Positions 18,528 through 21,500 of a stretch of DNA of 64,000 bases are shown here, piece after piece (the stretch's first letter is position 1; the number at the start of each line of letters is the position of its first letter). The stretch covers positions 44,317 to 108,316 of the IMG/VR virus record IMGVR_UViG_3300027763_000039. One strand, 5' to 3'. A model generated the notes under the pieces. The model did not search any database, was not told the origin of the DNA, and saw nothing but the letters and a program-made list of their open reading frames with translations. The stretch comes from a virus. Made by a program: the position numbers and the translations under genes.

Positions 18528-21500
18528 TTATACTTGGAGTACTCCTTCTGTTTTCATTGCTAGTTTGTTCATGGCTCCGTTAACTTGATCTAGGATCATT
18601 CTCTGAATAGGTTCTTGCATATTAGCAAATACTGATGCTCCATTAATAACAACTTCTACTCTGTGTGTACCTTGTAGATTAACTTGTTCTGGTATTTTAA
18701 TCTGTTCAAGTTGACCAATAAATCTATTGAAAGTGCTGGTAAACTGGCTTAATCCGTCTAATTGACCTCTGCTATTATTATTTACACCACCACCGACTGG
18801 AGTTGCCCCCATGCTTTGAATCATGTTTTCTAAAGCCATACCAAATTGGGTTAATACTTGATTACTTCCAGTTAATAAAGTTCCAAATATCGCTAATTGT
18901 TTATCAACATCTCCAGCATGTTGAGGATCAAAAGCTGCTTGAGCAGCCATATTTACTCTTTGGCTCATTTGGGGATTCATCTGTTGATTACCCTGAGTAA
19001 ACATTGCCTGATTTTGTTGTTGGTTCTGTTGGTTTGTCTGATTCCCTTGAGGAGGAGCTTGTTGAATCTGTCTTGGTATTCCTCTATATTTATATTCTTC
19101 AGCTTTATTTATTTGTGCTTCTTTTACTCTCTCGCCCAATGCTTTTCTTTCAGCTTCTATACTATCTCTAGTCTGTTTTCTCTCTGCTTCTATTGCTGCT
19201 AGTCTTAGTTGATCTAATTGTCTTCTTTCATCTCTGTCTTGTGTATATTTTCGTTTTTTAGGAGTTTCTCCACCTGACTCTAAGTATACTACTCCACCAC
19301 TAGAAAATCCTTGGGCTCCACTATTAATACTCTTTAACAGAGGTAGATTTTGCTGAGTGGCCTGACGATTAACAACAAACTCTCCTGGGGTCAACATTGC
19401 TGGTACAGTGTCTGTGCCTCTTGGCTGATAAGGAATCAACATTCCATTATTAGCATAAACCACCCCACCTCTAGCCTTAGCTAATACATCAATATTACTA
19501 GGAGCTAAATTGTCTGAACCAATATATTTAATAGCTGATCCAGGTGGCATAGTTTCAAAAAATCCTTCTCTAAATTTTTGAAGCATCTCTGGATTTCTTT
19601 TTCCTATAAACTTCATAATTTGGGATAGAACTTCACCATCTCTTGTTACTGCATCTGTACTATCATATATTGCTCGTCTGCTTGGTAGTCTAGTCTGCTG
19701 TTGCATTAGCCAACTATCTGCAAGACCTCCCCCTCCACTATTTGGACTAGCAAATGTTTGTGTTTGAATACCTCTTAAGGTTTTACCAGATGGATCTTGT
19801 AATTCTAGTTTCTTTAATAACGGGGAATATTTCATATCAGATAATACTGATTGTACTTGGTCAAAATTATCATGTAACCAACGAGCCACATAAGATTTAT
19901 TTAGCTCATAATCAAGATCAAATCTTGATGGGTCTAATGTTTCATCAAATTTAACAATCATGGGTTTACCACGAGTATCTGCTCCTGTAAGTGTTCCTTG
20001 CATAATAGATCTGGCGTGTTTTTCAGCTGCTTCCCTACTAGTGTAGGTGTACAAGCCTTGACCTTGTCCGTACCCCTTTGCAATACTACTTTTACCACCT
20101 TCTTTTTGAAAACTTTTTAAAATAGAGTCTTCTAAGCCAGTATTACTAGCATGAAAAAGAGGTACAGTTTTAGAAGCTTTGGGCACATCTAATGGCGCAC
20201 TAGATTTAGTAATAGGAGTTTTTGCTCCTCTGATACTTTGTCTTGAACCAGCGTTGGTTGTTGTAGCACCTCCAGCCACAGCTGCTTCAGCAATATCAGT
20301 AAACATATTCCAAGCTGCACCAGCTCTTTCTAAAAAAGAAGCTCCTAATAATCCTGGTCCTGCTGGTGGACCATAAGCACTAATTTCTCCTGTTGGAGTA
20401 TGCCACTGTCTCCCACTATTATCTGTAGTTATTTTTGCTCGTTGTGTTTGTAATTTTGCCTGTTGATTAGCAAAGTCTAATTCTCCTTGGGTTGGAGTCA
20501 TTTCTGGCATATAGTTCTGATTTTGTTGACCTAGTCTTGGATCCATTAATCGTGATCCTGGAACCAACACACCATTTTGAGCATAAACTATGCCACCCTG
20601 AGATTTAAATTGACCAAATGCTTTTGCTTTAGAGGATGGTATTGGTGTGACAGGTGTTGGGCTTACGGGCTTAACTAAATCGCCATAGCCTTGTTGCTCA
20701 ATTTCATATGAGGTTGTTGGTCTTCTAATATAGTCTTCACCAACACCAGACTCAACTCTAGTAGTATCTGTTATAAGACTTGGTTTCTTAGTATAACCAT
20801 TTTCTCCAGCACTAATATCAGGATGTTTTTCTAATTTTTTCCATAATTTTTTAGCATCTGGAGTTTGACTATCGTCAGGTATTACAGAACCACCTATTTT
20901 AGTGATATACTCTATAATAGCATGATATAAACTTTCTCCATATCCTTTTTTGGCTAATGATGTTTCTATTTTAAATGTTTTTTGATTATCTATCGGTTTT
21001 GCAGAAACTCTTCCCCATCCTTGGTTAGCGGATCCAGTTTTTGGATCTTCATAAAAAGCAATTATCTCTCTTGCATCTTCTCCAAATACTTCTGAATTAA
21101 ACTTGTCTGCATTTGTATTATCGTATGGACTTAGAATGCGAATTTTATTACTTGCTGGAGCTCCAGGAACATCTGGAGTTTGTGGTTTATTTTGTTGAGC
21201 AAGGAGAGACTGTTGGAGCTTGATCATAACTTTTTGTTTAGCATCTTCTAATACTCCACGAGCTGTTTCTATTAAGAATCCACCTCTAGATTGTGCTAGT
21301 TTTGGATCAGTATCTGCTTGAGTTAAATTAAAATTAGTATGTCTAGACAAAAATTCAGCAGCAGCAGACTCGCTTTCAGGTTGATAGAAATTACCAGTTC
21401 CTTCGACTTTAGCACCATATGTGCCTCCAACTTTTTGTTCAGCAGTACCAATTAAACCTCTATCTTTGTATCGGGAGGCATTCATTTCATCTACTGGTCC

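Follow-up and report, generated by a model that had tools for sequence, protein, structure and literature searches.

The 64,000 nucleotides analyzed here (the window) form the final 64 kb of an IMG/VR virus contig of 108 kb with a completeness of 77% (IMGVR_UViG_3300027763_000039, positions 44,317 to 108,316). It encodes a giant tape measure protein (TMP) that carries, close to its C-terminus, a module with the predicted fold of the ADP-ribosyltransferase (ART) superfamily. The reading that is somewhat favored as a whole is that of a divergent ART-fold domain of a polyvalent TMP, which would act as an NAD+-using enzyme delivered via the tail. The TMP is encoded by a single open reading frame (ORF) of 5,383 aa (P0001, 18528..34679) on the minus strand, as are all features given below with window coordinates. 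PF10145 (PhageMin_Tail) matches this ORF at aa 192-384 with E 6.6e-25 and 88.6 bits (cut-off 33.2), and matches were also obtained to the PHROG 'tail length tape measure protein' families 28, 167 and 4211; on these family matches, the carrier of the module is a TMP. The original prediction, an annotation made earlier from this DNA, had placed ART-like cargo near the TMP C-terminus, and all strings quoted there were found in this one ORF: VPLFHASNT at aa 4839 (20165-20139), FQKEG at aa 4857, GYGQGQGLYTYTS at aa 4869 (20075-20037) and AEKHA at aa 4885.

The domain comprises 234 residues (19476..20177, aa 4835-5068 of 5,383), with an hmmsearch envelope of aa 4834-5068; domain residue numbers used below are converted to protein numbers by adding 4829. 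An exhaustive HMMER search with aa 4830-5070 against 1.84 billion cluster representatives (50% identity clusters) yielded 142 homologue clusters at E<=1e-3, 17 of them at E<=1e-30. Two types of homologues were observed. In the first type, large proteins of 1,000-6,400 aa, the position of the domain ranges from aa 230 to 4,600; the TMP core of the window protein (at aa 145-420, E<=1e-64) is also present in 16 of the 21 other homologous proteins larger than 1,000 aa, and two of these 16 were confirmed by PF10145, while the remaining large proteins include at least one clear fragment. The second type, with many members, consists of stand-alone proteins (220-300 aa); one such protein (P0151, 264 aa) was found on three uncultured viral contigs of 34-100 kb (L013-L015, match at 8001-8792). 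The dN/dS of the domain was 0.13 and 0.33 against its two nearest relatives, demonstrating that it is under purifying selection. The stretch is a real, conserved domain.

The H-Y signature on which the original prediction was built could have been a chance motif in a low-complexity stretch of the TMP with no domain behind it, as the motif alone carries little information. However, a single occurrence of H[GA][ST]-x(15-45)-G-x-G-x-[YF] in the protein compares with 0.008 expected from 500 shuffles, and the residues of this pattern are 90-100% conserved in 134 homologues, which indicates conservation and not chance. The 142 homologue clusters, the two confident structural models described below and a dN/dS well below 1 likewise refute a chance origin, the probability of which is negligible. 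The signature itself is therefore real.

A further possibility is that the module is a structural or assembly element of the tape measure, e.g. a spacer, a plug or a chaperone-binding element, without any ligand. Such a role would suit its location in a structural protein between conserved joints, and neither a family model nor a functional annotation exists for it. Yet the variable position of the domain in TMPs fits poorly to a fixed structural role, the domain also exists as a free protein, in one case on viral contigs, and its H, Q, D, E, K and Y residues are invariant. This possibility is regarded as quite improbable.

To the window domain, together with 72 stand-alone homologues, AlphaFold2 (AF2) assigned a model with a predicted local distance difference test score (pLDDT) of 79.9 and a predicted template modelling score (pTM) of 0.76. 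In this model strand 1 (domain residues 9-17), which carries His14, is followed by a helix (20-31), and strand 2 (47-50), which carries Tyr48, is followed by a second helix (53-64); strands 3 (77-85), 4 (91-93), 5 (220-223) and 6 (231-236) complete the core. The position of the ARTT loop is taken by a variable, mostly helical insertion (19536..19904, aa 4926-5048, domain residues 97-219), which contains helices at 99-127 and 179-213 and a disordered center (pLDDT <50 at 140-178), and which is poorly conserved and variable in length across the family alignment A1. A second, independent AF2 model was obtained for the stand-alone homologue P0061 (pLDDT 81.6), and both models show the split beta-sheet ART core, in which six strands are present and strands 1 and 2 are each followed by a helix. 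Both were subjected to an unbiased, Foldseek-independent structural scan of 48,161 chains with VIA-align, of which the top 50 matches per model were inspected. For the window model nearly all of these belong to the ART superfamily, among them KptA (Z 7.4), PARP16 (7.1), PARP13 (7.0), the Rhs toxin TreX (7.0), DarT1 (6.6, 133 residues aligned), EcPltA (6.5) and diphtheria toxin (6.4), as well as Arr, Scabin, RES toxins and pseudo-PARPs. The top 50 of the P0061 model were again almost all members of the ART superfamily, led by EcPltA (Z 8.1) and TreX (Z 8.0). The two models thus argue strongly for an ART-superfamily fold of the His-Tyr branch, which the domain very probably adopts.

The best single match of the window model is KptA/Tpt1 (9ld3_A), the NAD-binding lobe of which aligns over 84 residues with a root-mean-square deviation of 3.2. 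Only the C-lobe (chain residues 91-180) is matched, whereas the N-terminal lobe has no counterpart in the module, and no Pfam match to the family exists. In Tpt1 the N-terminal lobe carries part of the Arg-His-Arg-Arg catalytic set. A KptA-like enzyme was rejected, as only one lobe matches. A toxin of the R-S-E clade was rejected as well, since strand 1 contains a His and not an Arg: the features of that clade (Arg in strand 1, Ser-Thr-Ser in strand 2, Glu-x-Glu before strand 5) are absent, with His and G-F-Y found instead, and the likeness to cholera and pertussis toxins is at the level of the fold only.

Conservation was next counted over the 134 domain homologues. The strand 1 motif L-F-H-A-S (20145..20159) contains His4843 (codon 20151-20153), the presumed NAD-site histidine, which as domain residue His14 is conserved in 99% (133/134) and is followed by G/A in 90% (120/134) and by T/S in 91% (122/134). 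The loop and strand 2, G-Y-G-Q-G-Q-G-L-Y-T-Y (20043..20075), harbor Gln4872, Gly4875 and Tyr4877, and the family consensus leading into this strand is G-x-G-Q-G-x-G-[FL]-[YF]. Here Gln43 (99%) and Gly46 (99%, 132/134) are near-invariant, as is the preceding Gly32 (99%), and position 48 is aromatic in all homologues (Tyr in 103/134, 77%; Phe in 31/134, 23%). After strand 4 follows the motif W/F-D-L-D-Y-E with the invariant Asp4923-Tyr-Glu4925 (19905..19913), in which Asp94 and Glu96 are present in 134/134 sequences and Asp92 in 87%; this D-x-E block is modeled with a pLDDT of ~92. Finally, strand 5 reads A-h-K-Y-h-G and contains Lys5051-Tyr5052 (19524..19529) in the slot of the canonical catalytic Glu/Asp, with Lys222 and Tyr223 each conserved in 132/134 (99%) and Gly225 in 96%. 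Eight positions, six of them polar, thus reach 99-100% (H14, G32, Q43, G46, D94, E96, K222 and Y223), and these mostly polar positions, together with the existence of stand-alone forms, suggest an enzyme rather than a scaffold.

No conserved acid was found in columns 217-226 of the 134 homologues. The third catalytic residue was placed by arithmetic on the aligned VIA-align ranges rather than by superposition of residues, which counts against the precision of the assignment to Lys222. The histidines PARP1 H862, PARP10 H887, PARP16 H152 and diphtheria toxin H21 are aligned with His14 of the window model and with the corresponding His25 of P0061. When residues were counted backwards from where each aligned range ends at its C-terminal side, PARP1 E988, PARP10 I987, PARP16 Y254 and diphtheria toxin E148 fell on strand 220-223. 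Since these third residues map to a strand without a conserved acid, an invariant lysine appears to take the place of the canonical catalytic acid in the models, i.e. the catalytic center appears to be rewired. Strands 4 and 5 form a hairpin in the ART topology, and D94/E96 and K222 should therefore be neighbors. Asp4923 and Glu4925 are candidates for relocated catalytic acids, and D94-x-E96 may substitute for the missing one. The original prediction had found no catalytic Glu; this holds for the canonical strand, whereas the invariant D-x-E (aa 4923-4925) is located at the end of strand 4, N-terminal of the insertion.

This placement has to be weighed against a canonical H-Y-E ART, in which Glu4925 would be the equivalent of PARP1 E988 and diphtheria toxin E148, the strand mapping would be off by one hairpin, and the catalytic strand would be succeeded by the two C-terminal strands, an order seen in small ARTs, for example Arr. 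The complete conservation of E96 and D94 fits such an arrangement, and a Tyr-to-Glu distance of 48 residues would suit a minimal ART like Arr, which has the catalytic set H19/Y49/D84 and is found among the structural matches (Z 5.7-6.3). In addition, when the insertion was masked, hhalign paired the K-Y strand with the strand following Y-D-G of ART-PolyVal, a phage ART family treated below, although with low confidence. On the other hand, the core of both models consists of exactly six strands, the fourth of which precedes D-x-E, and the arithmetic for PARP1, PARP10, PARP16 and diphtheria toxin points in every case to strand 220-223. Moreover, h-K-Y-h mirrors the local h-E-Y-I of PARP1 and diphtheria toxin. 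A canonical center is consequently considered improbable, and the rewired center is preferred.

The resemblance to the H-Y-E ARTs of the PARP/diphtheria toxin type otherwise lies in the fold (Z 5-7.1). The His-to-Tyr spacing of 34 residues is that of PARP1, and the h-Y-H-G-[ST] and G-F-Y motifs resemble those of diphtheria toxin. In contrast to these enzymes, the module has Lys and not Glu as the third residue, no Pfam PARP match and, at the ARTT/acceptor loop, a large insertion.

Among described families, ART-PolyVal (N4-ART/Tox-ART-HYD2-like ARTs in polyvalent proteins of phages and conjugative elements) is the nearest; a His/Tyr/Asp active site with the Asp in strand 5 was described for it (PMC5512222). 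As reference, six ART-PolyVal domains were used: the prototype, from the virion RNA polymerase (vRNAP) of Roseovarius Plymouth podovirus 1, and five domains from N4-like roseophages and a crAss-like phage. The prototype also served as positive control for PF18760 (ART-PolyVal) and reached 41 bits, whereas the window domain was not matched by this model at E<=1 (gathering score 31.2 bits). When 73 members of A1 were scanned singly against Pfam, only sub-threshold matches were obtained, which included the three ART-clan families ART-PolyVal (two members, E 0.031), PARP (0.055) and DUF3990 (0.074). The best ESM Atlas cluster has ART-PolyVal in 22% of its members (score 0.88) and is taken as a lead only. 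Profile-profile comparison with hhalign detected homology to the six reference domains with a probability of 83% (E 8.6e-6) for A1, of 92% (E 5e-7) for the 134-sequence alignment and of 94% (E 1.8e-7) for the same alignment with the insertion masked. The confident part is confined to the N-terminal half, from strand 1 to strand 3/4, while the alignment of the C-terminal half was inconsistent and of low confidence in local and global mode, with and without the insertion.

In the confident part, Y-H-G-T of ART-PolyVal is paired with [YF]-H-[GA]-[TS] of the family, with His4843 on the histidine of YHGT; G-[IF]-[FY] is paired with G-F-Y, and the A-x-x-Y-A helix with A-x-x-H-A. Both families therefore have in common, besides the ART fold, the strand-1 His, an aromatic residue after Gly in strand 2, an A-x-x-[HY]-A helix and a P-x-x-W motif. 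Unlike ART-PolyVal, however, the family fails the Pfam model, has Lys-Tyr and no Asp in strand 5, possesses its own invariant Gln, D-x-E and K-Y, and carries a helical insertion of ~120 residues; for the Y-D-G strand of the six reference domains, no equivalent containing a conserved Asp exists in the family. Given profile homology but no Pfam match, the family is, as judged from these profiles, a distant sister of ART-PolyVal and not a member of it. The assignment to H-Y-type ARTs in the original prediction is thus borne out for the fold, in two models, and for the nearest family, whereas the canonical H-Y-E/D site and matches to the ART-PolyVal and PARP Pfam models were not found.

The module and ART-PolyVal are alike in being embedded in giant multi-domain virion proteins, and carriers of ART-PolyVal hold zincin and GNAT modules. 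ART, GNAT and zincin domains were described in large injected virion or transfer proteins, termed polyvalent proteins (PMC5512222, Iyer et al. 2017); the term 'tape measure' does not occur in that paper. The phage polyvalent ARTs described there, predicted in 2017, have head or vRNAP-type carriers and a His-Tyr-Asp active site (PMC5512222). The carrier in the window is a tail TMP as opposed to a vRNAP, a MuF or a head-associated protein. ART domains in phage polyvalent proteins are thus already known; what is new is the undescribed family, its non-canonical center and the TMP as carrier. Like ART-PolyVal domains, the module is predicted to act early on the host. Only by analogy in function, it resembles phage T4 Alt, an ART packaged in the virion and injected into the host (PMC5512222, PMC9503650), in that both would be virion-borne ART-fold enzymes that are delivered with the DNA and modify the host. 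They differ in that Alt belongs to the Arg-Ser-Glu clade and is a separate head-packaged protein, whereas the module has His-Tyr and is a domain of a TMP.

Based on the models, the module is probably an enzyme that is carried into the host via the tail, possibly with unusual chemistry. It would bind NAD+ and act as an ADP-ribosyltransferase or NADase, with either a host macromolecule or water as acceptor of the ADP-ribose. The acid would be supplied by Asp4923/Glu4925, perhaps in a pair with Lys5051, and the variable helical insertion would select the target. Of these steps, NAD+ binding is likely given the modeled fold, whereas for ADP-ribosyl transfer or hydrolysis the chances are evenly balanced. 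A more far-reaching version, in which a His-Tyr-Lys center with a relocated Asp-x-Glu performs a new lysine-using chemistry on NAD+ or on another nucleotide and the module is delivered through the tail lumen as TMP cargo, is thought unlikely. If it were true, the tape measure would be a general vehicle for effector injection, comparable to cargo loading of the type VI secretion system (T6SS) or of contractile injection systems (CIS).

Several observations speak against an NAD+-using, tail-delivered ART-fold enzyme. The individual Z scores of 5-8.1 are in the range that the tool calls middling, so the evidence for the fold resides in the near-uniformity of the two match lists. Foldseek, by which the original prediction proposed to check a predicted structure, gave no match at E<=1e-3 in PDB and BFVD. 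Below this threshold, the PDB list contains cholera and pertussis toxins, PARP4, tankyrases, Tpt1/KptA and the RES-type toxins NatT and MbcT, and the weak BFVD matches include 'ART-PolyVal-like', DarT, 'PolyVal ADP-ribosyltransferase' and a protein named 'large polyvalent protein associated domain'; the families in these weak lists are those of the VIA-align scans. Sequence searches of Pfam, NCBIfam, PHROGs and PDB with the domain, family members and the A1 profile gave no significant match, which makes this an undescribed family, and PF18760 and PF00644 (PARP) matched nothing in the whole contig even at E<=10. By tblastn, four family members had no match in 50,697 GenBank phage records; with no cultured relative, the family is known only from metagenomes. 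As to the active site, Glu, Asp or Gln, the residues of the His-Tyr branch at the start of strand 5, are absent there, and a lysine in this slot is expected to disfavor the oxocarbenium-like transition state of ARTs. Models for Macro, NADAR, ARH and Nudix, i.e. for ADP-ribose-processing partners, had no match in the 108-kb contig, although missing partner genes are weak evidence in a contig that is only 77% complete. Lastly, a folded domain of 25 kDa must fit the tail tube or unfold to pass, and then reach cytoplasmic NAD+.

Some of these points would be accommodated by a domain with an ART fold but no transferase activity. It could bind NAD+, ADP-ribose or a nucleotide, for example as a sensor or as a decoy or sponge for immune signals of the host, or it could catalyze another reaction that the Lys-for-Glu change and the D-x-D-x-E motif would allow. 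The invariant Lys in place of the canonical acid and the lack of a partner gene are in line with this, as are matches to non-catalytic or repurposed ART folds, namely the TASOR pseudo-PARP, PARP13, CNFy domain 4, IcmQ, RES/MbcT and KptA. However, conservation of the NAD-site His and of the aromatic strand amounts to 99-100%, and catalysis is suggested by the eight positions, six of them polar, that reach 99-100%. In addition, PARP10 and PARP16 are active transferases despite a non-acidic third residue. A module without transferase activity is therefore judged unlikely, if somewhat less so than a canonical H-Y-E center, and the reading as an NAD+-using transferase or NADase is retained.

The organization of the TMP suggests that the module is tail-borne cargo and one of several such modules. 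The ART-fold module is placed between a leader of ~140 aa and the last long joint of the protein. The leader (20178..20597, aa 4695-4834; GGIVYAQNG...MPEMTPTQGELD...) is of low complexity without a folded lobe and is a repeat of the leader at aa 3977-4110 (~22345-22750); its pattern, GG-I-[IV]-Y-A...LGQQNQ..MPEMTPTQGELD...ISAYGPP.GPG over ~100-140 aa, hence stands ahead of two different modules. The joint peptide after the module (19269..19469; GGVVYA...TDTVPAMLTPGEFVVN...GGVVYLESGG) matches the PHROG TMP families 25241 and 17300. Joints of the type GG-h-h-Y-A...TDTVPAMLTPGEFVVN (PAMLTPGEF) are present in five copies, at aa 544, 2379, 3294, 3537 and 5093, next to shorter GG-h-h-Y copies in the same ORF, and the same joint peptides occur in related giant TMPs. 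Further modules are flanked by joint peptides, and an HExxH (zincin) motif is located at aa 3697. With joint-delimited modules and this putative peptidase motif, the 5,383-aa TMP can be classified by its sequence as a polyvalent protein.

Delivery through the tail is rather likely. The C-terminal end of a TMP sits at the tail tip, and a C-terminal module would therefore leave the tail early, so that the ART-fold module would be among the first parts out of the tail at infection. TMPs with embedded enzymes are known, namely the Rpf motif of TM4, Pb2 of T5 and the muramidase of phiIPLA35, which hydrolyze the cell wall and thus act in the envelope (PMC6116005). CIS effectors that are related to TMPs and have exchangeable functional domains, such as Sle1, were reported in 2026 (PMC13277306). 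The TMP of the window is similar to these in its modular architecture, with a putative enzymatic or effector domain inside a TMP-type protein that would be released on ejection, whereas the predicted fold would be NAD+-dependent and cytoplasm-acting in contrast to the envelope-acting hydrolases. In the literature searched, no description was found of an NAD+-dependent, cytoplasm-acting fold in a phage TMP.

The same fold is thus found in two settings, as a movable, recurrent cargo module of giant TMPs and as a stand-alone protein of uncultured phages, and its catalytic center matches that of no characterized ART. If the domain is active, TMPs could carry cytoplasm-acting effectors and not just cell-wall enzymes, and the known range of catalytic configurations of ART folds would widen. 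Neither Pfam nor NCBIfam nor PHROGs contains this family of at least 142 clusters (50% identity), and its definition would annotate many 'dark' phage proteins.

Apart from these results, a few observations were made on proteins with related domains. The top Foldseek match of the window model was PDB 9k3a chain B (residues ~1418-1606), an ejection protein in the pre-ejectosome of the cyanopodovirus A4, with E 0.028; the same chain gave Z 5.3-5.6 in both VIA-align scans, and a related protein, protein 26 of Phormidium phage Pf-WMP3 (BFVD A5HL40), was also among the matches. The A4 structure paper makes no mention of ADP-ribosylation. An unrecognized ART-like domain may be present in this solved structure, which is presented as a lead only. 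In the crAss-like phage cr130_1 (NC_055901.1, L008), gp80 is encoded by a coding sequence of 2,074 aa with an ART-PolyVal-like domain near the N-terminus; under table 11 it contains an in-frame TAG (locus nt 790-792), which fits stop-codon recoding. Around the stand-alone homologue P0151, the neighboring genes on its viral contigs had no Pfam annotation except for a sub-threshold GerE/LuxR-type helix-turn-helix match in a downstream neighbor on the same strand. For another stand-alone homologue, P0014, only a fragment was recovered.

In the window, the TMP gene is accompanied by four further very large ORFs, one of 4,021 aa (45397-57462), one of more than 2,303 aa that runs off the window (2-6910), and two of 1,856 aa (6921-12491) and 1,442 aa (14187-18515), the last two without a Pfam or PHROG match. 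No match to a tail sheath model was obtained anywhere in the contig. Upstream of the tail module lie tail-fibre-like genes (40536-41480, 41477-43942 and 44227-45381), among which one PHROG match to a tail-fibre/tail-spike N-terminus, one Laminin_G_3 lectin-like domain and one sub-threshold collagen-repeat match were found.

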